Under the pieces are notes generated by a model. The model was given only the letters and a program-made list of their open reading frames with translations, made no database searches and had not been told where the DNA came from. A stretch of 64,000 bases of DNA. Source: Acutalibacteraceae bacterium. Its GTDB lineage: Bacteria; Bacillota; Clostridia; Oscillospirales; Acutalibacteraceae. Location of the stretch: positions 68,589 to 132,588 of the forward strand of contig JAZQFG010000050.1 in NCBI GenBank assembly GCA_045539375.1, written 5' to 3'. The translations under genes and the position numbers were made by a program. Positions 3,152 through 47,117 of this stretch are shown piece by piece (position 1 is the stretch's first letter; each line of letters starts with the position of its first letter).

Positions 3152-3346
3152 AGACCGTCACTCCTTTGCCATAAACTACCTTTCATTCTACCATAAAATG
3201 CAGGTAGTTGCAATCTTTATTTTATCCATATATTGTTTACAAACAAATTCACAGAAAACTCTTTTCTTTTGCCACCGCGTGTGGTATAGTGTATTGTGAC
3301 ATAACTTGGACAATGATTCCGACCAAAACCGTGAGGAGGGACCGTC

Positions 3347-4339
3347 ATGGCCCGTCAGGCGAATCAAAAACTGAAGCTTTTGTACCTGCTGGAGATCCTG
3401 CGGCGGGAAACGGATGAGGAGCACCCTCTGACCCTACGGCAGATTCAGGATCTGCTGGAGCAAAAGGGTGTATCCGCCGAACGCAAGAGCCTGTACGACG
3501 ACATCGAGCAGCTTCGCCTGCTGGGGGAGGACGTGATATCGGTGCGGGATACCACCGTGCGGTACTATATCGGCGACCGCACGCTGGATATGGCACAGTT
3601 GCGCCTGCTGGTGGATGCGGTCCAGTCCTCTAAGTTCATCACCCGTAAGAAGAGCGAGGAGCTTATCCGCCGTCTGGAAAGCCTGACCAGCCGCCATCTG
3701 GCGGGTCAGCTGCAGCGGCAGGTGCTGGTCTCCGGCCGTATCAAAAATATGAACGAGAGTATCTACTACAACGTGGATAGTCTGCACAATGCCATGGCCG
3801 CCAATCGGCAGGTATCCTTTCAGTATTTTGATTGGGGTGTGGATAAGCAGCAACACCTGCGCCACGGCGGCGCCCAATACACCCTCAGCCCCTGGGCATT
3901 GACCTGGGATAACGAAAACTACTATCTCATTGCCTACGACAGCGTGCGGGGCACCATCCGCCATTACCGCGTGGATCGGATGCTGCGCATTCGCCAGACC
4001 GACGCCCCCCGCGAGGGCGAGGCGGTGTTCCGCGGTCTGGATATGGCGGTGTACAACCGCAAGGCCTTTGGTATGTTCGGCGGACAGGAGCAGCCGGTCA
4101 CCCTGCAGTGTGTCAACTGGATGGCGGGCGTGATTCTGGATCAGTTCGGGCAGGACACCCCTTTGGTCCCTGCGGATGAGGACACCTTCACCGCCCGTGT
4201 GCCGGTGGTGGTCAGCCCGCCCTTTTTCGCGTGGCTGTCCGGCTTTGGTGCGGATATCCGCTTGATTAAGCCCCAAAGCGTGGCCGAGGAATACACCCGT
4301 TACCTCCACGGCATTTTAGCGGGGTACGGCGATGATTAA
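3347..4339 (+). CDS. WYL-domain transcriptional regulator (N-terminal wHTH, central WYL, C-terminal WCX-like)
   Basis: 330 aa. N-terminus KLKLLYLLEILRRETDEEHPLTLRQIQDLL is wHTH-like. The central block FQYFDWG...YTLSPWALTWDNENYYLIAYD...IRHYRVDRM is the WYL signature. Confidence 0.8.
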   Translation: MARQANQKLKLLYLLEILRRETDEEHPLTLRQIQDLLEQKGVSAERKSLYDDIEQLRLLGEDVISVRDTTVRYYIGDRTLDMAQLRLLVDAVQSSKFITRKKSEELIRRLESLTSRHLAGQLQRQVLVSGRIKNMNESIYYNVDSLHNAMAANRQVSFQYFDWGVDKQQHLRHGGAQYTLSPWALTWDNENYYLIAYDSVRGTIRHYRVDRMLRIRQTDAPREGEAVFRGLDMAVYNRKAFGMFGGQEQPVTLQCVNWMAGVILDQFGQDTPLVPADEDTFTARVPVVVSPPFFAWLSGFGADIRLIKPQSVAEEYTRYLHGILAGYGDD

Positions 4340-4892: not shown

Positions 4893-6218
4893 ATGAAACA
4901 GAACAAGCGTATCATCGCCCTGTTGGCGGCGGTACTGGTGCTGTGCACCGGATGCAGTATGGATGTGGAATCCTTTCTGCAGCCGCCCCGTGTGGGCGGC
5001 CAGCAGCAGGCGGGGCAGGCGGCGCTGGAGACCTATCTGCGGGATAGCGGCGGCTCCGGTGTGCGCTATACTTTGGAGTACCCCGTGGAGGGGGAATATA
5101 CCGCCGCCTTTTTGCTGTGTGATGAGCAGGGTTTTCCCGTAGAGGATACCGCCACCGCCCAATCGGCGCTGGCCTTTTATTCCCTGTCCACCGCCCCCGA
5201 CGTAACCCGTATGAACCGCCTGCAGCGCAGCGGCGGGGAATGGGTATCGGTGGCGGATACGGTGGGCGAGGGTCCCGCCATCCGTCAGGTGAGCTTTGGC
5301 GATCTGGACGGAGATGGTACTGCCGAGATCGTGACCGGCTGGTCCACCTATACCGCCGGCTCCAACCGCTTGGCGGTGTACGGCACTGCTGAGGGACTGA
5401 CCCTGATCGACGGCACCAAGCAATATACCTCCCTTTTTGTGGGGGATCTCACCGCCGCGGGCTATGACAGCCTATTACTGCTCACCGTAGGCAGCGGTGA
5501 ACGGGTCACCGCCACCCTGGAGACCTTAGGGGATGATGCCCTGCGCACCGTGGATACGGCACGGCTGGACGGTGCGATCCGCCAGTTTGGCACGATGACC
5601 CTGTGCCGTCTGTCTGCGGATGTGCACGGCCTGTTTGTGGACGCCTTCAAGACCGAGGGGGTCACCATCACCGAGCTGATTTATTATGATGATACGGGGC
5701 TGCAGACCCCGTTCTATGATCCGGCCACCAATACCACCGCCGCCACCGCCCGTGTGGGGCGCACCGCCGCCCGGGATATGGATGGGGATGCGCTGGTGGA
5801 GATCCCCCGGCATACGGTGCTGGCGGGGCATACCGCCGCCGACGTGGGCGGCACTGTGACGCTGTGGCGGGGCTGGGATTATTCCACCCGTACGTGGCTG
5901 GATTATGCCTATACGTTACTGAACGAGGCGGACGGATATATGGTGGTGCTGGGGGATGGCCTCCACACCCATTTGGATACCGCCTATGATACCGCCACAC
6001 GCACCCTGACCCTGACCGATACCGTCACGGCTGCCCCGTTTCTGTGGCTGACGGTGGGGGCACAGGCACCGGATTCCCCTGCCGAGGGGCTGGAGCTGTT
6101 GCGGCTGTTTGACACCCGCCAGGGGCAGTGGGGCTATTATGCGTGGTATGATCCCACCGTGATGACGGCGGAGAAGGTGCGGTATACCGTGACCCGCCTG
6201 ACTGGGGAAGGAGGTTGA
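4893..6218 (+). CDS. Lipoprotein of unknown function with FG-GAP/VCBS-like DxDGDG motifs
   Basis: Signal peptide plus lipobox (LVLCTG-C). Contains FGDLDGDGTAEIVTGW and ARDMDGDALVEI motifs. The stop overlaps the start region of the downstream response regulator. Confidence 0.7.
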   Translation: MKQNKRIIALLAAVLVLCTGCSMDVESFLQPPRVGGQQQAGQAALETYLRDSGGSGVRYTLEYPVEGEYTAAFLLCDEQGFPVEDTATAQSALAFYSLSTAPDVTRMNRLQRSGGEWVSVADTVGEGPAIRQVSFGDLDGDGTAEIVTGWSTYTAGSNRLAVYGTAEGLTLIDGTKQYTSLFVGDLTAAGYDSLLLLTVGSGERVTATLETLGDDALRTVDTARLDGAIRQFGTMTLCRLSADVHGLFVDAFKTEGVTITELIYYDDTGLQTPFYDPATNTTAATARVGRTAARDMDGDALVEIPRHTVLAGHTAADVGGTVTLWRGWDYSTRTWLDYAYTLLNEADGYMVVLGDGLHTHLDTAYDTATRTLTLTDTVTAAPFLWLTVGAQAPDSPAEGLELLRLFDTRQGQWGYYAWYDPTVMTAEKVRYTVTRLTGEGG

Positions 6219-40116: not shown

Positions 40117-40154
40117 GCGTTGGGAGGATATACTACGGGCGAGGAGTGATGGAT

Positions 40155-40598
40155 ATGAACCCCACCGAAAAGGAATATCAGCAGATGACCAAAAAGGCGT
40201 CCCCCGGCTCTCCCGTGGTAAAAAATTGTTTGTTTGCCTTTGGTGTCGGCGGTTTTTTGTGCGCCTTGGGTGAGACGGCGTATCAGCTGATCGCCATGAC
40301 CGGTATGGAGCAAAAGACCGCACGGATGCTGGCCTCCGGCTTGCTGATTTTGCTGGCGGCGGTGCTGACGCTGCTGCAAGTGTTTGATAATATCGCCAAG
40401 CACGCGGGGGCCGGCACGCTGGTGCCCATCACCGGCTTTGCCAATTCGGTGGTCTCCCCGGCCATTGAGTTTAAGACCGAGGGTTTCATCCTCGGTCTGG
40501 GTGCTAAGATGTTCACCATCGCAGGGCCGGTGATCGTGTACGGTGTGTCTGCAAGTGTAGTGTATGGACTGATTTATTGGATAACCACATTATTTTAA
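40155..40598 (+). CDS. spoVAC: Stage V sporulation protein AC
   Basis: MNPTEKEYQQMTKKASPGSPVVKNCLFAFGVGGFLCALGE...PITGFANSV..PAIEFKTEGFILGLGAKMF matches SpoVAC end to end. The ATG at 40155 lies 8 nt after GAGGAG. Confidence 0.9.
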   Translation: MNPTEKEYQQMTKKASPGSPVVKNCLFAFGVGGFLCALGETAYQLIAMTGMEQKTARMLASGLLILLAAVLTLLQVFDNIAKHAGAGTLVPITGFANSVVSPAIEFKTEGFILGLGAKMFTIAGPVIVYGVSASVVYGLIYWITTLF

Positions 40599-40604
40599 CA
40601 AAAA

Positions 40605-40627
40605 GGCTTGACCAAATCGGTCAAGCC
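40605..40627. terminator. Bidirectional terminator hairpin (array hairpin 1)
   Basis: AAAAA-GGCTTGACC-AAATC-GGTCAAGCC-CTTTC, lying between the convergent spoVAC and the cassette-1 gene. Confidence 0.65.
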
Positions 40628-40634
40628 CTTTCTG

Positions 40635-41300
40635 TTATTCTGTAGTAAAGAAACCATCGCTAGTGGTAACATTTAAAATTCCGTAAGAAGAGAGTGTAGT
40701 CTTTGGTCCTGTTTCTTGGGGATATCTATAAGGCCACCAAGTTAAGAACTCTTCGGATACTTGATCAATAGGAGTATCGGGAAGGTAGAAAATGAATTCG
40801 GTACATTCTTGCTTTTTGCTGGGATCATACAGTCCATAAGGGGCACTTGCTATATAACGGATTTCATCCTCAATCCATTCTTCACCAACTACTTTTTCAG
40901 TTTTTACATCTGTTAAAGTCATTTGGTAGGAATACTCATCGACTTTTTTGATGTTCTCAAACTTTCCAGAAAAATCACAAATGTATGCACTACCCTTCGG
41001 ATAACCCTCACCGGTTTCGCCCATCTCTGAATCAAGATACCGTCCTGTAAATGTGCCATCACGGTTTAGTGTTATAGTTGTCCGCCAAGCCCCTGCACCA
41101 GAAAGAAAAGAGAATTCTATTGAATCTTGCGGTAAAGGTAAGGACTCTACTTCCGTGGTGTGTTTTGCTTCGGTGGATATTGTGGTTGTAGGGTCGTCAT
41201 CGGATATGCTTGGATTACTCTTTTGCAGTTCATTCGAACAAGCGGTTAAAAGCAAGAAAAGTAATGCTATGACGAGAATAATGCTTAATAACTTTTTCAT
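40635..41300 (-). CDS. Cassette 1 cargo: lipoprotein of unknown function
   Basis: MKKLLSIILVIALLFLLLTAC lipobox and a GAGGTGG RBS. Hand counts of 60-nt lines give about 38-45% GC, against about 57-65% in the flanks. Confidence 0.75.
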   Translation of the reverse strand: MKKLLSIILVIALLFLLLTACSNELQKSNPSISDDDPTTTISTEAKHTTEVESLPLPQDSIEFSFLSGAGAWRTTITLNRDGTFTGRYLDSEMGETGEGYPKGSAYICDFSGKFENIKKVDEYSYQMTLTDVKTEKVVGEEWIEDEIRYIASAPYGLYDPSKKQECTEFIFYLPDTPIDQVSEEFLTWWPYRYPQETGPKTTLSSYGILNVTTSDGFFTTE

Positions 41301-41321
41301 AAAACCACCTCACTTTATTTC

Positions 41322-41349
41322 ATTATACCACACCGCCGTTTTAATGTAA
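41322..41349 (-). promoter_or_regulatory. Candidate sigma-A promoter of cassette 1 (inside the conserved cassette backbone)
   Basis: The minus strand reads TTACAT, 16-nt spacer, then TGgTATAAT. The TSS would fall about 15 nt upstream of the ATG. Confidence 0.5.
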
Positions 41350-41389
41350 ATGTTATTTTAAATGGGTGTGTCCTATATTGACAGCAGCA

Positions 41390-41509
41390 GAGGGTTTCAT
41401 CCTCGGTCTGGGCGCAAAGATGTTCACCATCGCCGGCCCCGTTATCGTCTACGGCGTCGCCGCCAGCGTGGTTTATGGCTTCATTTATTGGATTACCACA
41501 TTGTTCTAA
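41390..41509 (+). pseudogene. Stranded copy 2 of the spoVAC 3' end (last ~39 codons plus stop)
   Basis: Encodes EGFILGLGAKMFTIAGPVIVYGVAASVVYGFIYWITTLF*. It aligns base-for-base with 40479-40598, with mostly third-position differences. There is no 5' part of the gene. Confidence 0.9.
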
Positions 41510-41516
41510 CGAAAAA

Positions 41517-41539
41517 GGCTTGACCCATCGGGTCAAGCC
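41517..41539. terminator. Array hairpin 2
   Basis: GGCTTGACC-CATCG-GGTCAAGCC, flanked by an A-run and CTTTCTC. Same stem as hairpin 1. Confidence 0.65.
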
Positions 41540-41545
41540 TTTCTC

Positions 41546-42187
41546 TTATATATCCAACAATTCCTTAAAATCATAAATATAAAAGTCGGTGGTGGCTTTC
41601 ATTTGCTCTACATAATCCTTCGAGGAATCGTCATATACGCCGCAGACCGACATACCCGCCGACTTTGCGGTTTTATCGGCATCAATATTGTCATCTAAAA
41701 ACAGAACATTGTCAACAGAGGTCTTCATTTTTGCAGCTGCCATAACATAGATGTTCGGGTCTGCCTTGGTTGTATTAAAATCGTCGCAGGACCAAATGTT
41801 ATCAAAGAGTTCCCACATACCCAGTCGCTTCAAGCAAGCATCCAGTGTAATGTGGGGACTGGCAGTTAGCACATTTAAGCTTGCCCCTTGCTGCTTTAGC
41901 TCTTGGAGAACGGATATCACATTGCTTTTTGCGGGAATGGTATAAAAATACGCGTCCAGCATATATTCTTTCATAGTAAGCATCAGCTGCTCCTTGGACA
42001 TTTGCAGACCTAACTGGTTTATGAAGTACTCGGCTGTACCGCTAAGTCCAAGGGGTGTAATAACTTTTACGATGTCATCCCCATAAGAGATGTTGTTTTC
42101 ATCCAAAATGCGGAGCATACAGGAGCAGAAAGTGGGCATAGAATCCACCAATGTTCCGTCAAAATCAAAAAGATAAAAAGATTTCAT
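41546..42187 (-). CDS. Cassette 2 cargo: HAD-IA family hydrolase (phosphatase)
   Basis: MKSFYLFDFDGTLVDS motif I and LFLDDNIDADK motif IV. The ATG at 42187 lies 6 nt after AAGGAGAG. AT-rich. Confidence 0.85.
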   Translation of the reverse strand: MKSFYLFDFDGTLVDSMPTFCSCMLRILDENNISYGDDIVKVITPLGLSGTAEYFINQLGLQMSKEQLMLTMKEYMLDAYFYTIPAKSNVISVLQELKQQGASLNVLTASPHITLDACLKRLGMWELFDNIWSCDDFNTTKADPNIYVMAAAKMKTSVDNVLFLDDNIDADKTAKSAGMSVCGVYDDSSKDYVEQMKATTDFYIYDFKELLDI

Positions 42188-42215
42188 TGTCAACTCTCCT
42201 TAAAATATCCCCATT

Positions 42216-42243
42216 ATTATACCCCGCCGCCGCGTTAATGTAA
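42216..42243 (-). promoter_or_regulatory. Candidate sigma-A promoter of cassette 2 (same backbone position as in cassette 1)
   Basis: The minus strand reads TTACAT, 16-nt spacer, then TATAAT. Confidence 0.5.
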
Positions 42244-42281
42244 ATATTTTTTCATCATTGTGTCCTATATTGACAGCAGCA

Positions 42282-42401
42282 GAGGGTTTCATCCTCGGTC
42301 TGGGCGCTAAGATGTTCACCATCGCCTGCCCCGTTATCGTCTACGGCATCGCCGCCAGCGTGGTGTATGGGGTGGTGTATTGGATAACGACTATAATATG
42401 A
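42282..42401 (+). pseudogene. Stranded copy 3 of the spoVAC 3' end
   Basis: Encodes EGFILGLGAKMFTIACPVIVYGIAASVVYGVVYWITTII*. The left junction is identical to that of copy 2. Confidence 0.9.
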
Positions 42402-42404
42402 AAA

Positions 42405-42429
42405 ACAGGCGGTCTAAATGACCGCCTGT
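42405..42429. terminator. Array hairpin 3 (different sequence)
   Basis: ACAGGCGGTC-TAAAT-GACCGCCTGT, preceded by AAAA. Confidence 0.6.
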
Positions 42430-42477
42430 TCAACTTTTATGTTCTTTCTATCCCTAACATTTCTTTGATCTGGGTAT

Positions 42478-44442
42478 TCACTCTACAAACATCCGGAAGT
42501 CGAAGGCTTTTGGCACGGATGCTGTGGTTGGGTCGAAGGTCAGACCGGCTTTCTTGGCTTTTTCACACTGGATATTCAGATAGAGTTCGGTGAGGGACTC
42601 CTCGCTCTCGCGGATGTCCTCCACCACCAAGCCGCCATCGCGGTAAAGTACGGCTTCGGCGGCGTCAACCTCACCTTGCCGCAGCAGGGCAAGTGCATAC
42701 AGCATACTGACCCGACCATCCTGTGCAACGGCTGCCGGCAAGGTTGTATACGTCCGGACAACCGCCTGCAGATCGTTCACGTACAGAGCTGCCCGCAGGG
42801 CCTCTCTGGTCAGGGGAATATCGTCAGTACATACACTCTGGGCCTCCAGCAGCGTGGAGGCGCAGGCTTGCTGCTCGCCGGCCATCCGCTGGATCTCAGC
42901 CAGCACGAACAGTGCAGCGGCCGAGCGGGAGAAGGCCACGGCTGCCTGTGCCGCCTTTTTAGCGGTCTCCAGCTGTCCTTGTACAGCGTAGATTGCCGCC
43001 AGGTGCAGTTGTTTTTCGTAGCTGTCCGGCGCCGCCTCCAACAGAGCGGTCCACTCCTTTTGCAGCATCCAGGAAACAGGGAAGGCACAAGCCTCCTGCC
43101 GCGATAGGCTGCCCTGTTGCAGTAGCGCATACCACGGCTGCTGCTCATCCTGTAACTGACCGAAATCCAGATACGGGCACAAGGGATCCTCATCCTGTAC
43201 TTCCCGGCGCAGCTGTTCCAGTTTGCCCCATCCGGAGCCACAGAAAACGGTCTTTGCCGGTGAGGTAGCCATTCCATGGGTATCCGCCAGCAGCTTGTTC
43301 AATGTTTCCGGGGAGACTTGTTCCCCGATTGCTGCGGCTGTCTGCTCAATGGCAGTATCCCAGTCACCGTTAACCGTGGACGGATCCATCGACACGGCAC
43401 CGTAGCATTCTACCCATTCCCAGGCGGTTTTTGGGGGCATAGGGATGCACTCATACTGTGTCTGCCCTACGCCCGCTTGGATCTCTGCATAGCGACGGGT
43501 GGTATCGTCTTCGGAGAGAAATTCCTGCCAGCGTGCACCACCCGGCCCCTGTCCCCAGACGAACAGCTTGCGCCCTCTCTGTCGGGCGGTGGAGGCTTGG
43601 AAAAAGCCATATCCATCCGGAGCAAAATAGGCCATGAATTTCCGCTCTTCAGGCGGGATTTTCCAGAAATAGTCCACTGCCACGGGGTTGTTTGTGGGGT
43701 AGCTGATGTCCCGCCCCTGATGAAGCGGCGCCTGCACCTTGCCGAGGACATAATTCTTATTGGTATAAGCGGCGTGGGCAGGGACGATCATGCGGTAGCC
43801 CTCGTCTTCCGGTACGGCGATGTTCGTCCACCAGTACATGGGGACCGTCTCTCGATTGGGGTTGACGATGCGCATACGACCGTACAGCACTTTAGAGTCG
43901 GCGGGCAGAAAGAAATCCATCTGATAGACGCAGGCGCGGATGCGTTCATATTCGTAAAAACGCAGCACCGGTGTGCCGTCTTCCAGGGCGGTCTGAGCCA
44001 TAAACATACGGTCGCAGGTGAAGGGGCCGTGCCCCACCATGCCGCAGTTGAATTCGATGCCGCCGGAGAGCCAGGCGTTGCGCAGTGCCAGATTACAAGG
44101 ACGGACGACGGTGTTTTCGTACAGCAGGTCTCGACCGGCTTTTTTATCGTACAGCGACCACAGACGTCCCCCCAGCTGGGGCAGAAATACTGCCCGCAGG
44201 TATTCGTTTTCCAGGACGGCTGCCGTATATTCTCGAGGTGTCAGTGTGCGGTCATAAAGATCCTGCATACGGTAAGGAAAGATGGACTGTAAAAACCCGT
44301 ATCCGATGTAAATCTCATCATCTTCATCCAAGGCGCCGCCGGTCATATTTTGCACGTTAGACACCGCGGCCAACGGGGGCAGTGACGAGACTCCGTGGAA
44401 ATCCGCAGACGGAATGATCATCTTTTCAAAATGCAAGCTCAT
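42478..44442 (-). CDS. Cassette 3 cargo: DUF5107-like beta-sandwich protein with C-terminal TPR-like helical repeats
   Basis: About 654 aa. The ATG at 44442 lies about 10 nt after GGGAGG. The N-terminal two thirds resemble DUF5107/aldose-epimerase-like proteins (from memory). The C-terminus is alanine-rich helical repeats. Confidence 0.55.
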   Translation of the reverse strand: MSLHFEKMIIPSADFHGVSSLPPLAAVSNVQNMTGGALDEDDEIYIGYGFLQSIFPYRMQDLYDRTLTPREYTAAVLENEYLRAVFLPQLGGRLWSLYDKKAGRDLLYENTVVRPCNLALRNAWLSGGIEFNCGMVGHGPFTCDRMFMAQTALEDGTPVLRFYEYERIRACVYQMDFFLPADSKVLYGRMRIVNPNRETVPMYWWTNIAVPEDEGYRMIVPAHAAYTNKNYVLGKVQAPLHQGRDISYPTNNPVAVDYFWKIPPEERKFMAYFAPDGYGFFQASTARQRGRKLFVWGQGPGGARWQEFLSEDDTTRRYAEIQAGVGQTQYECIPMPPKTAWEWVECYGAVSMDPSTVNGDWDTAIEQTAAAIGEQVSPETLNKLLADTHGMATSPAKTVFCGSGWGKLEQLRREVQDEDPLCPYLDFGQLQDEQQPWYALLQQGSLSRQEACAFPVSWMLQKEWTALLEAAPDSYEKQLHLAAIYAVQGQLETAKKAAQAAVAFSRSAAALFVLAEIQRMAGEQQACASTLLEAQSVCTDDIPLTREALRAALYVNDLQAVVRTYTTLPAAVAQDGRVSMLYALALLRQGEVDAAEAVLYRDGGLVVEDIRESEESLTELYLNIQCEKAKKAGLTFDPTTASVPKAFDFRMFVE

Positions 44443-44495
44443 ACTGCTATTTTCCTCCCAACTTAACATCTGGTATAGTATTGTTGTATCATGTT

Positions 44496-44663
44496 TTGAC
44501 AGGGGGTTTCAATAGCAAATTTTTTAGAATGTTATGGTTTATTTGGAAAGGTTCGGAAGGCAGGCTTCTATGGTGCGTTACCAAGATATTCACCATCGCC
44601 GGCCCGGTGATCGCCTACGGCGTCGCCGCCAGCGCGGTGTATGGGGTGATTGTTGGAGAATAG
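44496..44663 (+). pseudogene. Degenerate copy 4 of the spoVAC 3' end (junction motif, ~70-bp replacement, then last ~26 codons)
   Basis: TTGACAGGGGGTTTCA junction at 44496-44511. From 44583 it encodes KIFTIAGPVIAYGVAASAVYGVIVGE*. The track ORF 44481-44663 is a chimera of filler and this fragment. Confidence 0.8.
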
Positions 44664-44680
44664 CACTACCCTAACACAAA

Positions 44681-44705
44681 AGGCTTGAGCGGACGCTCAA
44701 GCCTT
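44681..44705. terminator. Array hairpin 4
   Basis: AGGCTTGAGCG-GAC-CGCTCAAGCCT followed by TTT. Related to hairpins 1 and 2. It also lies downstream of the convergent sdaA. Confidence 0.65.
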
Positions 44706-44710
44706 TTCGC

Positions 44711-45910: not shown

Positions 45911-45971
45911 CAAAATCACCTGCTTGTCATTTTTTCTCATTTTATCACGAACCCAACCTCTTTGCAACCAT

Positions 45972-46003
45972 AAAAAAGCCTCCCCGTGTGGGGAGGCTTT
46001 TTT
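45972..46003. terminator. Terminator hairpin, left copy of an identical 32-bp repeat
   Basis: AAAAAAGCCTCCCCGTGTGGGGAGGCTTTTTT. Confidence 0.8.
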
Positions 46004-46232
46004 AGTTTTCACGAAAATCAAAGAGCTTGCTGGGAGATACCTGTAACACTTCACAAATCTGAAATACCACATCCAGCGAAACGGCACAGTCTGCCGTTTC
46101 GATACGGCTCATATGGGTACGGCTGATGTTGACCCTTTCGGCTAATTGCATTTGAGAAAGACCGCACTTTTTGCGGTAATAGGCAACGTTTAAGCCCAGA
46201 TAACGGAACTTGTCTTGATGATGCATATCCAT
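46002..46232 (-). CDS. XRE-family HTH transcriptional regulator (76 aa)
   Basis: LSQMQLAERVNISRTHMSRIETADCAVSLDVVFQICEVL is a Cro/C1 HTH. Confidence 0.8.
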   Translation of the reverse strand: MDMHHQDKFRYLGLNVAYYRKKCGLSQMQLAERVNISRTHMSRIETADCAVSLDVVFQICEVLQVSPSKLFDFREN

Positions 46233-46292: not shown

Positions 46293-46321
46293 ATTTATGT
46301 AACTTGACAAGTTACATAAAT
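46293..46321. promoter_or_regulatory. 29-bp perfect palindrome (candidate XRE operator) overlapping a TTGACA -35
   Basis: ATTTATGTAACTTG-A-CAAGTTACATAAAT. TTGACA at 46304-46309, then about a 16-17 nt spacer to TGTGTAATAAT. Confidence 0.5.
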
Positions 46322-46362
46322 TGTGTAATAATACACGAGATAGGGATACGAAAAGAGGTGAG

Positions 46363-47085
46363 GTGGATTTGTATTCAACCATCATTATTATCATCGCGGG
46401 CGTCTGTGCTTTGTTTGCGATGGGACTGTTTGTGAAGGCGGGTTTTCTAAGAAAGATTTTAGTAAAGTTAGGTGTTGCGGAACAGCGGGGGAAAGTCAAT
46501 TGGACCGCTTTTTCGTGGGAAACTTGTCTTAAGAAAATGGATTGCCGGGCCGATGTGGTATTCTTTGGCGATTCTATTGTGCAGGGCGGCAATTTTCACC
46601 TCGCTTTCCCAGAGTATAAGATCGTCAATTTAGGGCTCGGCGGCGATACTTTGTCAGGTATGTGTGGACGGGTATCCACAGTGCAGGCATTACAACCGCA
46701 AAAAGTGTTTTGCCTTGGCGGTATTAATGGATTAACCGACTGGAACGGTAAAATGAGTTTAAAGACCTATCGACGGTTACTAACACGGTTACGAGAAGAG
46801 TTGCCATTCGCTGAGATTTATGTGCATAGTTTGTTCCCGGTGACGAAAAGTAGAGAACGTGGTCTATGTAAAAACAGCACTATCCTATGGTTTAATCGTG
46901 AGGTTGAAAAGATGGCAAAAGAAATGGGCGTTAACTATATTGATATTCACAGTCGGTATGTTATGGAGGGTGTGATGAATCCTGCGTATTGTCAGAAAGA
47001 TGGTCTGCATATTGCCAATGCCGGATATGCATTGTGGTATGAGGAGTTAAAAGCGTACTTACCTACTATTGCAGAAAAAAAGTAA
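46363..47085 (+). CDS. SGNH/GDSL-family hydrolase with N-terminal membrane anchor
   Basis: Block I FFGDSIVQGG, block II LGLGGDT, block III GGINGL, block V DGLHI. The start is GTG 46363 or TTG 46369, after GAGGTGAG. The track start at 46321 lies inside the promoter/palindrome. Confidence 0.75.
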   Translation: MDLYSTIIIIIAGVCALFAMGLFVKAGFLRKILVKLGVAEQRGKVNWTAFSWETCLKKMDCRADVVFFGDSIVQGGNFHLAFPEYKIVNLGLGGDTLSGMCGRVSTVQALQPQKVFCLGGINGLTDWNGKMSLKTYRRLLTRLREELPFAEIYVHSLFPVTKSRERGLCKNSTILWFNREVEKMAKEMGVNYIDIHSRYVMEGVMNPAYCQKDGLHIANAGYALWYEELKAYLPTIAEKK

Positions 47086-47117
47086 AAAAGCCTCCCCGTG
47101 TGGGGAGGCTTTTTTTA
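47084..47117. terminator. Terminator hairpin, right copy of the identical 32-bp repeat
   Basis: AAAAAAGCCTCCCCGTGTGGGGAGGCTTTTTTT, between the convergent SGNH and acyltransferase genes. Confidence 0.8.

Follow-up and report, generated by a model that had tools for sequence, protein, structure and literature searches.

Three gene cassettes behind spoVAC in an Acutalibacteraceae bacterium: a likely tandem array of non-autonomous units with site-specific integration

A 64,000-nucleotide stretch from an Acutalibacteraceae bacterium (GenBank assembly GCA_045539375.1, contig JAZQFG010000050.1, positions 68,589 to 132,588; hereafter the window, whose own numbering is used throughout) harbors the sporulation gene spoVAC at 40146-40598 (Pfam PF03862). 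The gene stands alone, adjoined by neither spoVAD nor spoVAE, and its final 39 codons are present four times as direct repeats, once within the intact gene (c1) and three times downstream (c2-c4, Table 1). One minus-strand gene, and no more, separates each pair of neighboring copies. How did the end of a protein-coding gene come to be repeated and interleaved with other genes? Comparison with other genomes indicates that the region is likely a tandem array of three non-autonomous gene cassettes that integrate site-specifically at the spoVAC end.

The four direct copies and the hairpin behind each of them, noticed in a first-pass annotation of the window, were recovered by repeat search (family D1), alignment, and folding. 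The hairpins (40605-40627, 41514-41542, 42404-42430, and 44678-44706) fold with -20 to -23 kcal/mol and z-scores of -5.6 to -7.9, and three of the four are variants of GGCTTGA..TCAAGCC. The window copies differ pairwise at 21-24 of 117 positions, and the synonymous bias claimed for these differences holds: c1 and c2 are separated by 19 synonymous and 2 non-synonymous changes (pN/pS, the ratio of non-synonymous to synonymous divergence, of 0.03), and the ratio is 0.20 for c1 versus c3 and 0.33 for c2 versus c3. Over their first 23 nt, c1, c2, and c3 do not differ at all. The even spacing of the direct repeats (911 and 892 bp) could be taken as a sign of local tandem duplication or of an assembly artifact. 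However, the copies have diverged, mostly synonymously, the cargo genes are mutually unrelated, and the units recur in assemblies produced independently by other studies from other hosts; refuted by these cross-genome data, duplication or misassembly retains a negligible probability.

The units share one order, consisting of the last 39 codons of spoVAC, a bidirectional terminator, an opposite-strand cargo gene, the cargo's own promoter, and a 23-bp junction (J, TGTGTCCTATATTGACAGCAGCA). As first described, the single minus-strand genes of the first two cassettes are AT-rich, with GC contents of 0.40 and 0.43 for cassettes 1 and 2 versus 0.58-0.62 in the flanks, while cassette 3 is host-like at 0.55. 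The sequence GTGTCCTATATTGACAGCAGCAG has exactly two matches in the window and GAGGGTTTCATCCTCGGTCT has three, none away from the junctions; shuffled sequence is expected to contain 0 of either. The left junction had been reported as the same in all three stranded copies, which is true of c2 and c3. At c4 it is a decayed remnant, and the scar TTGACAG..GGGTTTCA at 44496-44511 is separate from c4 itself, which starts at 44556. On the other side of the array, spoVAC codons 1-111 share 88% nucleotide identity with the relative at locus L240 (other genomes and contigs are denoted by such L numbers), whereas the 3′ end of the gene is cassette-derived. Exact-protein look-ups with the cargo of cassette 1, the neighboring GH94 protein, and the window SpoVAC (P0001) gave no match, and an Rfam search of the array gave none above threshold.

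The same locus in relatives records the order in which the array was built. L126, whose SpoVAC is 86% identical and which has the GH94/GH38 neighborhood in common with the window, is an empty site: its spoVAC closes with its own terminator GGGCGGATGTGGCATCCGCCC, and neither a junction nor an extra copy is present 3′ of the gene. L240, the closest relative (SpoVAC 93% identical), carries the DUF5107 cassette alone, directly on spoVAC, such that the stranded c3 of the window is the working spoVAC end in L240. Nucleotides 392-2755 of L240 match window positions 42282-44645 with 98.8% identity over 2364 bp, and c3 departs from the L240 copy in its first 50 nt only. On the 3′ side of DUF5107, L240 has the same decayed junction, a complete ancestral spoVAC end, and the native terminator GGGCGGATGTGGGCATCCGCC, which is also found 3′ of spoVAC in the empty-site L126. 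L127 and L128 (SpoVAC 83% identical) have a very different array at the corresponding place. The insertion order is the ancestral end, farthest from the gene, followed by DUF5107, HAD, and the lipoprotein, nearest the gene. With no cassette in L126, one in L240, and two more upstream in the window, this is the order expected of sequential integration into a live gene. The first-pass interpretation, sequential integration at a fixed site rather than local duplication, is thus supported by the empty and one-cassette loci and by cassettes shared with unrelated hosts, and the variation in cassette number and content that it recommended looking for among relatives was found.

Beyond 44645, c4 diverges from the L240 version (44645-44706 versus L240 2755-2807) and stops early, and a cassette-type hairpin, GGCTTGAGC..GCTCAAGCC, follows where L240 has its native terminator. 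This suggests an extra deletion, or recombination with a cassette since lost.

The junction is widespread among gut Clostridia. A scan of one genome per species with the pattern GTCCTATATTGACNGCNGCAGARGG, and thus selective for one J type, returned at least 119 stretches from about 114 metagenome-assembled genomes (MAGs); all cassette, copy, and cargo counts are taken from these 8-kb loci. The motif had been proposed as a probe for further sites, and among the matches listed it always adjoins a spoVAC end. The hosts among these matches include Oscillospiraceae, Acutalibacteraceae, Faecousia, Ruminococcus, Avispirillum, and others, chiefly from ruminant and bird guts. At least 267 spoVAC-end copies are present, the leftmost always being the intact gene, and 132 stranded copies have a conserved 23-24 bp block that abuts the crossover on its left. 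The reading frame is still open in 170 of 199 stranded ends. The loci contain at least 147 cassettes of 454-6290 bp (median 956 bp), 113 of the 147 with a single gene, and 75% of the cargo genes are oriented away from spoVAC. The 200 cargo proteins form 121 clusters and match 89 Pfam families, among them AraC and Xre regulators, SDR and ADH enzymes, HAD, BNR, and DUF6442 proteins, and many unknown lipoproteins and membrane proteins. Large cassettes inspected by eye hold metabolic and regulatory genes only. Three motif-bearing loci without a tblastn match to spoVAC (L063, L101, and L117) were considered as evidence of a second target, but all proved to be decayed spoVAC copies.

One cassette carries a retron-type reverse transcriptase (PADLOC RT_Ec107-like, E=3e-126); defense genes are otherwise not prominent in the cargo set. 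In five genomes (L015, reverse-complement ~3270-3368, and L037, L072, L088, and L092), a GC-rich insert of ~100 bp, similar in all five and containing ..CGACCGCNGCCACTCNCTC..CATCCGCCACCGGCGGCG.., breaks a stranded end after approximately codon 127; the L015 copy of the insert has no Rfam match at E<=0.01. In L101 (oriented; ~400-520 and 5540-5660), two stranded ends are cut after 8 codons by one insert with paired GGGGCGGCA..TGCCGCCCC hairpins, which may be a small palindromic repeat element.

Cassettes are exchanged between hosts one at a time. Cassette 1 is 99.85% identical to a cassette of L104, an unrelated Acutalibacteraceae MAG, and the exact HAD protein of cassette 2 is encoded on three further contigs. 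In L004, which comes from a host of 35% GC with a SpoVAC merely 62% identical, the HAD cassette is 99.4% identical over the cargo region and is flanked by other cassettes, namely AraC+GH127 and peptidase M55; one HAD cassette is therefore common to a 35%-GC and a 58%-GC host. Altogether, 40 cassette pairs are common to different genomes with 88-99.8% identity, and in none of the 40 is the adjacent cassette also shared.

A single cargo can also be found with two junction types, TGACCACAAGCA versus TTGACAGCAGCA (L028_2 versus L106_0, L122_1, and L065_0; L060_2 versus L061_0), from which it follows that junction modules and cargo recombine independently.

The shared pairs locate the exchange. In all 40, the shared stretch ends abruptly on the right: the two members match at 95-98% through base -1, after which identity drops to ~70%, the value for unrelated spoVAC ends. 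Base -1 goes with the junction in every pair, while base +3, which is the R of GARGG, is mismatched in 16 of the 40, close to the ~44% expected by chance; the exchange is therefore confined to GA, positions 1-2. The youngest pair (WIN_0/L104_0, 99.85%) has a matching left boundary, and its exchange is bracketed within GAGGG. An exchange limited to 2 bp, right where homology ends, speaks against integration by RecA and is the signature of a serine recombinase.

Entry of the cassettes would require no site-specific enzyme if the 120-bp spoVAC end served as a portable homology arm for RecA, either in a Campbell-type single crossover or in a double crossover after transformation, transduction, or conjugation. 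Such a process predicts scattered crossovers, whereas the right-hand fragment is at background from base 3 onward in 40 of 40 pairs. In addition, the 23-bp non-coding junction is conserved across unrelated cargo and recombinase-bearing elements, and the fragments, at ~75% identity between hosts, are poor RecA substrates. Homology-driven entry is quite unlikely on this evidence, even though the left boundary varies inside the spoVAC fragment, the fragments are mosaic, and c1, c2, and c3 begin with the same 23 nt.

The alternative class of site-specific enzymes, the tyrosine recombinases, could act here as an integron integrase, through Xer hijacking as in the IMEX (integrative mobile elements exploiting Xer)/pdif modules, or as a tycheposon-like integrase. 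The small-cassette array is integron-like, and a perfect 9-7-9 palindrome spans the crossover. Nevertheless, the exchange region is 2 bp rather than 6-8 bp, the hairpins are plain terminators and not attC sites, and the junction accompanies serine rather than tyrosine recombinases. No tyrosine recombinase is encoded in the window, and a single XerD-like gene, probably coincidental, is present in the at least 119 loci (L083). A tyrosine-recombinase system is accordingly very improbable.

The palindrome itself (AGACCGAGG-GTTTCAT-CCTCGGTCT, 40474-40498, inverted repeats I21/I22) straddles the crossover of the intact gene. Since other hosts do not keep it in their spoVAC, it is probably a by-product of codon choice; a dif-like or tyrosine core-site reading of junction and palindrome was rejected given this host specificity and the 2-bp exchange region.

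The first-pass annotation found no recombinase in sight, which stands for the window but not beyond it, as a cognate triplet of serine recombinases resides on larger elements that share the junction. A second junction type, GGGTCCTAAGTTGACACAAGCA followed by GARGG, was seen among stranded copies outside the search pattern. A search of viral contigs with this type yielded three contigs, each with a DUF6870 gene, three tandem recombinase genes directly before the junction, and a spoVAC fragment. The three recombinases are ~550, 567, and 535 aa long with ~31% mutual identity; all have Resolvase and Recombinase domains and two also have Zn_ribbon_recom, which identifies the triplet as large serine recombinases. 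Homologues were collected from ENA/Logan assemblies, IMG/VR, and JGI/ENA metagenomes, accepting the third recombinase down to 48% identity, and in them the module again sits at the end of larger elements. A true third recombinase is present at 94 loci. In 80 of these it is followed by a spoVAC fragment, at a distance of 63-240 nt or, occasionally, a few kb; the remaining 14 have no spoVAC-fragment match, and many of them are cut contigs. The junctions of parents and cassettes belong to a single family, and the junction TGTGTCCTATCTTGACACAAGCA at which 21 parent loci end differs from the window J at 3 of 23 bases. L152 and L153 are two copies of one parent element, 100% identical over >16 kb up to fragment position 5 and divergent from position 6. 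In L137, L140, and L146, a parent element lies upstream of ordinary cassettes in one array. On this basis, the missing recombinase is probably the large serine recombinase trio of the larger elements.

The parent backbone includes a RecD2-like helicase, a DnaG-zinc-ribbon/DUF3854 primase-like protein, a ParM-like ATPase, sigma70_r4 and HTH_16 proteins, and toxin-antitoxin and Abi genes. Annotated relatives of the recombinases in phages and plasmids do not exceed 52% identity, and the nearest annotated relative is TndX at ~33%. A phage or plasmid with the spoVAC end as attP was sought by tblastn of the C-terminal peptide against phage and plasmid collections; this candidate was dropped, the search returning whole spoVAC genes only, on bacterial contigs mislabeled as phage.

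The addiction and abortive-infection modules of the parents comprise AbiEi/AbiEii, RelB/YafQ, HicB, and Barstar with an RNase toxin (L140 1518-2947; L152 852-1411, 11802-12143, and 14832-15708). In L152, ~4.5 kb of such cargo separates the third recombinase from the junction. In the lineage of the window, spoVAC is found alone, outside the spoVAC-spoVAD-spoVAE operon. Several human-gut contigs (L302 15158-16580, L303 5199-6627, and L244 15011-16530) have a SpoVAE/EB-like gene ~1 kb past the post-triplet spoVAC fragment, and the large element therefore splits the canonical spoVAC-spoVAD-spoVAE operon in those hosts.

A mechanism can be proposed in which attP consists of J and the first ~25 bp of the carried spoVAC end, attB corresponds to codons ~104-120 of the resident spoVAC, and strands would be exchanged at the GA of codon Glu112. 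Each incoming cassette would provide a new functional spoVAC end and displace the previous one downstream as a stranded copy, such that the newest cassette adjoins the gene and the ancestral end is farthest away. The enzyme, which the cassettes do not encode, would most likely be supplied in trans or via cis-accretion by larger plasmid- or ICE-like elements (ICE, integrative and conjugative element). These larger elements, with DUF6870 and three paralogous large serine recombinases, would integrate at that same GA using a similar junction type. The mosaic ends would arise when the tandem 120-bp copies recombine homologously or undergo gene conversion, and cassettes may be excised in the same way. 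The cassette anatomy, the insertion polymorphism, the sharing of cassettes across species, the position of the crossover, and the tie of the recombinase triplet to the junction are observed directly, whereas the circular forms of the cassettes, their mobilization in trans or by accretion, and the parts played by the individual recombinases and DUF6870 are inferred. In its broadest form, the proposal is that gut and rumen Clostridia possess a serine-recombinase functional analogue of the integron, with a spoVAC-end landing pad, promoter-equipped cassettes exchanged singly across >100 species, a recombinase trio acting in trans, and exit by homologous recombination; this wider proposal is about as likely as not.

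Several observations weigh against enzyme-driven integration of this kind. Motif searches with regular expressions and tblastn with the three recombinases detected no recombinase gene in the 64-kb window or the at least 119 listed 8-kb loci. In 80 metagenome and 20 viral loci, the 10 kb preceding the first recombinase contain no spoVAC, and the left end of the parent, which would lie beyond that distance, was not reached; a protein search with the RecD2-like fragment returned truncated relatives only, and a SpoVAC-profile scan of viral contigs returned two unrelated prophages. Neither a circular cassette nor an excision product was observed, and terminal overlaps are absent from the 5-8 kb recombinase contigs. 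Shared cassettes have a diffuse left boundary, which in older pairs falls at differing points of the carried spoVAC end; on average only the final 20-30 nt of that end stay with the cargo, so that an extra process is needed. The 5′ parts of the copies are homogenized inside one genome, and gene conversion or homologous excision among the tandem 120-bp repeats presumably makes the spoVAC ends mosaic. The attP and attB sites of large serine recombinases are ~40-50 bp long, with imperfect dyad symmetry about a central dinucleotide. A dyad scan of the proposed att sites gave no clear axis at GA; conservation reaches ~24 bp left of GA, and the right half is coding-constrained.

The cassettes might also be in-situ deletion remnants of full-size recombinase-bearing elements that integrated repeatedly, immobile by themselves and spread by descent or inside a parent composite. 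Such debris would resemble cis-mobilizable elements (CIMEs), which are devoid of integration and transfer genes, retain attL and attR, occur in tandem with ICEs, and can be mobilized by them (PMC6323972). Parent elements do use the site and head some arrays, and in cassette 3 the junctions have decayed and the GC content resembles that of the host. Yet pseudogene fragments of recombinase or backbone genes are present in 0 of 147 cassettes, and the cassettes are built to one stereotyped plan, with a promoter, a single gene, and a terminator. The cargo is very diverse, and identical cassettes reside in different species beside different neighbors. Decay in place is, on balance, unlikely, and site-specific integration of ready-made cassettes is the preferred reading.

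Comparison with known systems places the cassettes closest, it appears, to pseudo-SCC elements (psi-SCC; SCC, staphylococcal cassette chromosome) and CIMEs in logic and to integrons in layout. In psi-SCC elements, the ccr recombinases are missing and the bounding repeats are kept (PMC7029136). The SCC and psi-SCC islands share with the present system the probable use of large serine recombinases, a conserved gene 3′ end that is left functional, tandem accumulation, and recombinase-less members. However, the SCC target is rlmH (orfX) at the integration site sequence (ISS)/att repeat, as opposed to spoVAC codon 112, and SCC employs the CcrAB complex or CcrC, whereas the parents here encode an apparently distinct set, the trio and DUF6870, and the cassettes encode none. 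The cassettes are also miniature (median <1 kb, one gene) with a standard promoter and terminator, they replace 117 bp of coding sequence rather than bringing a short terminal repeat, and their hosts belong to many genera of gut Clostridia rather than to one genus.

The likeness to CIMEs lies in tandem accretion at the end of a protein-coding gene, as for ICESt1/ICESt3 at the fda 3′ end. Cassettes 1 and 2 have the gene content and att sites of a CIME, with cargo only, GA cores, and an intact J (3 of 23 bases off the parent junctions), and in cassette 3 the junctions are decayed. In contrast, the known CIMEs depend on tyrosine integrases and are regarded as ICEs that have decayed, whereas the riders at spoVAC are single-gene units of one uniform build whose cargo varies widely; they move singly and are linked to serine recombinases. 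Streptococcal ICEs of the Tn5252/Tn1549 type have serine-integrase triplets at element ends and 2-8 bp direct repeats (Ambroset et al. 2016, PMC4701971). Their likeness, which concerns the parent elements only, consists of three adjacent, co-oriented large serine recombinase genes beside an att junction and of very short junction identity, the crossover here being in GA within GARGG. They differ in that their targets mutT, traG, and hsdM are disrupted, while spoVAC is restored by the carried gene end; no satellite cassette arrays have been reported for them, and their hosts and backbone are unlike those described here.

The first-pass description of the array as integron-like or tycheposon-like does not extend to membership, as the defining features of both are missing, and the psi-SCC/SCC islands and CIME/ICE accretion are nearer in logic. 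As in integrons, a fixed chromosomal platform carries stacked, mostly single-gene cassettes with hugely diverse cargo, the newest nearest the platform. Yet IntI, attI, and attC are all absent, and no tyrosine recombinase was detected in the window by motif search or in Pfam scans of neighboring genes. Integron cassettes are bounded by attC imperfect palindromes and are mostly promoterless, being read from Pc; here, the boundaries are the 23-bp junction and a coding fragment, the hairpins are perfect-stem terminators, and cassettes 1 and 2 have their own promoters and are read away from spoVAC. The recombinase is likewise not part of the platform, and a 2-bp core is typical of serine recombinases. 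Tycheposons, known from Prochlorococcus and marine cyanobacteria, are tandem cargo elements of kb to tens of kb that insert at the 3′ end of tRNA genes, each leaving a partial copy of the target, and carry a tyrosine recombinase or other hallmark genes. The spoVAC site, in contrast, lies in a protein-coding gene, and the recombinases associated with it belong to the serine family.

Full-text literature searches returned no paper tying spoVAC to attB, an integrase, or a serine recombinase, and DUF6870 is mentioned in no paper found. The new features are the miniature and uniform single-gene riders with standard promoter and terminator, the 117-bp gene-end replacement, the spoVAC target, the diverse cargo, and the one-at-a-time exchange across >100 species. 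If this reading is correct, strictly anaerobic gut Firmicutes would have an unrecognized and widespread route for trading single accessory genes across families, including regulators, enzymes of sugar and redox metabolism, lipoproteins, and a retron, comparable to integrons in Proteobacteria. Large serine recombinases, the poorly understood three-gene modules included, would then support miniature non-autonomous cassettes beyond SCC-like islands, and the natural attB/attP pair, with its many junction variants, would offer a landing pad in genetically recalcitrant organisms. The arrays would be an ordered record of acquisition, usable for strain tracking. For annotation, the stranded 47-codon spoVAC open reading frames are better read as att scars than as genes.

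Table 1. Positions of the array features in the window (the last row refers to locus L137)
Feature	Position	Strand	Remarks
spoVAC, host-derived part (codons 1-111)	40146-40478	+	Pfam PF03862, E=1e-37
Repeat c1	40479-40598	+	End of intact spoVAC
Repeat c2	41390-41509	+	Stranded copy
Repeat c3	42282-42401	+	Stranded copy
Repeat c4	44556-44706	+	Decayed ancestral spoVAC 3′ end (44556-44663) and hairpin (44678-44706)
GA crossover dinucleotide	40479-40480	+	First two bases of codon Glu112; again at 41390-41391, 42282-42283, and 44556-44557
Junction J (TGTGTCCTATATTGACAGCAGCA), 23 bp	41367-41389	+	Identical copy at 42259-42281; proposed attP left half-site
Cassette 1, 911 bp, newest	40479-41389		c1, terminator, cargo, promoter, J
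Cassette 1 bidirectional terminator	40600-40630		
Cassette 1 cargo, lipoprotein-like	40635-41300	-	No Pfam match
Cassette 1 promoter	41350-41322	-	TTTACA-17-TATAAT, 11/12 consensus matches
Cassette 1 J	41367-41389		
Cassette 2, 892 bp	41390-42281		c2, terminator, cargo, promoter, J
Cassette 2 terminator	41511-41545		
Cassette 2 cargo, HAD phosphatase	41546-42187	-	Pfam HAD_2
Cassette 2 promoter	42244-42216	-	TTTACA-17-TATAAT, 11/12 consensus matches
Cassette 2 J	42259-42281		
Cassette 3, 2274 bp, oldest	42282-44555		c3, terminator, cargo, decayed junction remnants
Cassette 3 terminator	42404-42430		
Cassette 3 cargo, DUF5107/TPR	42478-44469	-	Pfam DUF5107
Cassette 3 junction remnants	44496-44511; ~44533-44555		TTGACAG..GGGTTTCA; degenerate J
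Example recombinase triplet	L137 591-5543		Followed by J at 5662-5686

Downstream of the array, a perfect hairpin (AAAAGCCTCCCC....GGGGAGGCTTTT) occurs twice, at 45971-46004 and 47083-47116, enclosing an AT-rich segment of 1.1 kb (40-46% GC) between sdaA and an acyltransferase gene. The segment encodes an Xre-type HTH protein (46002-46232, minus strand) and a GDSL lipase (46321-47085, plus strand) and could be a further small insertion.

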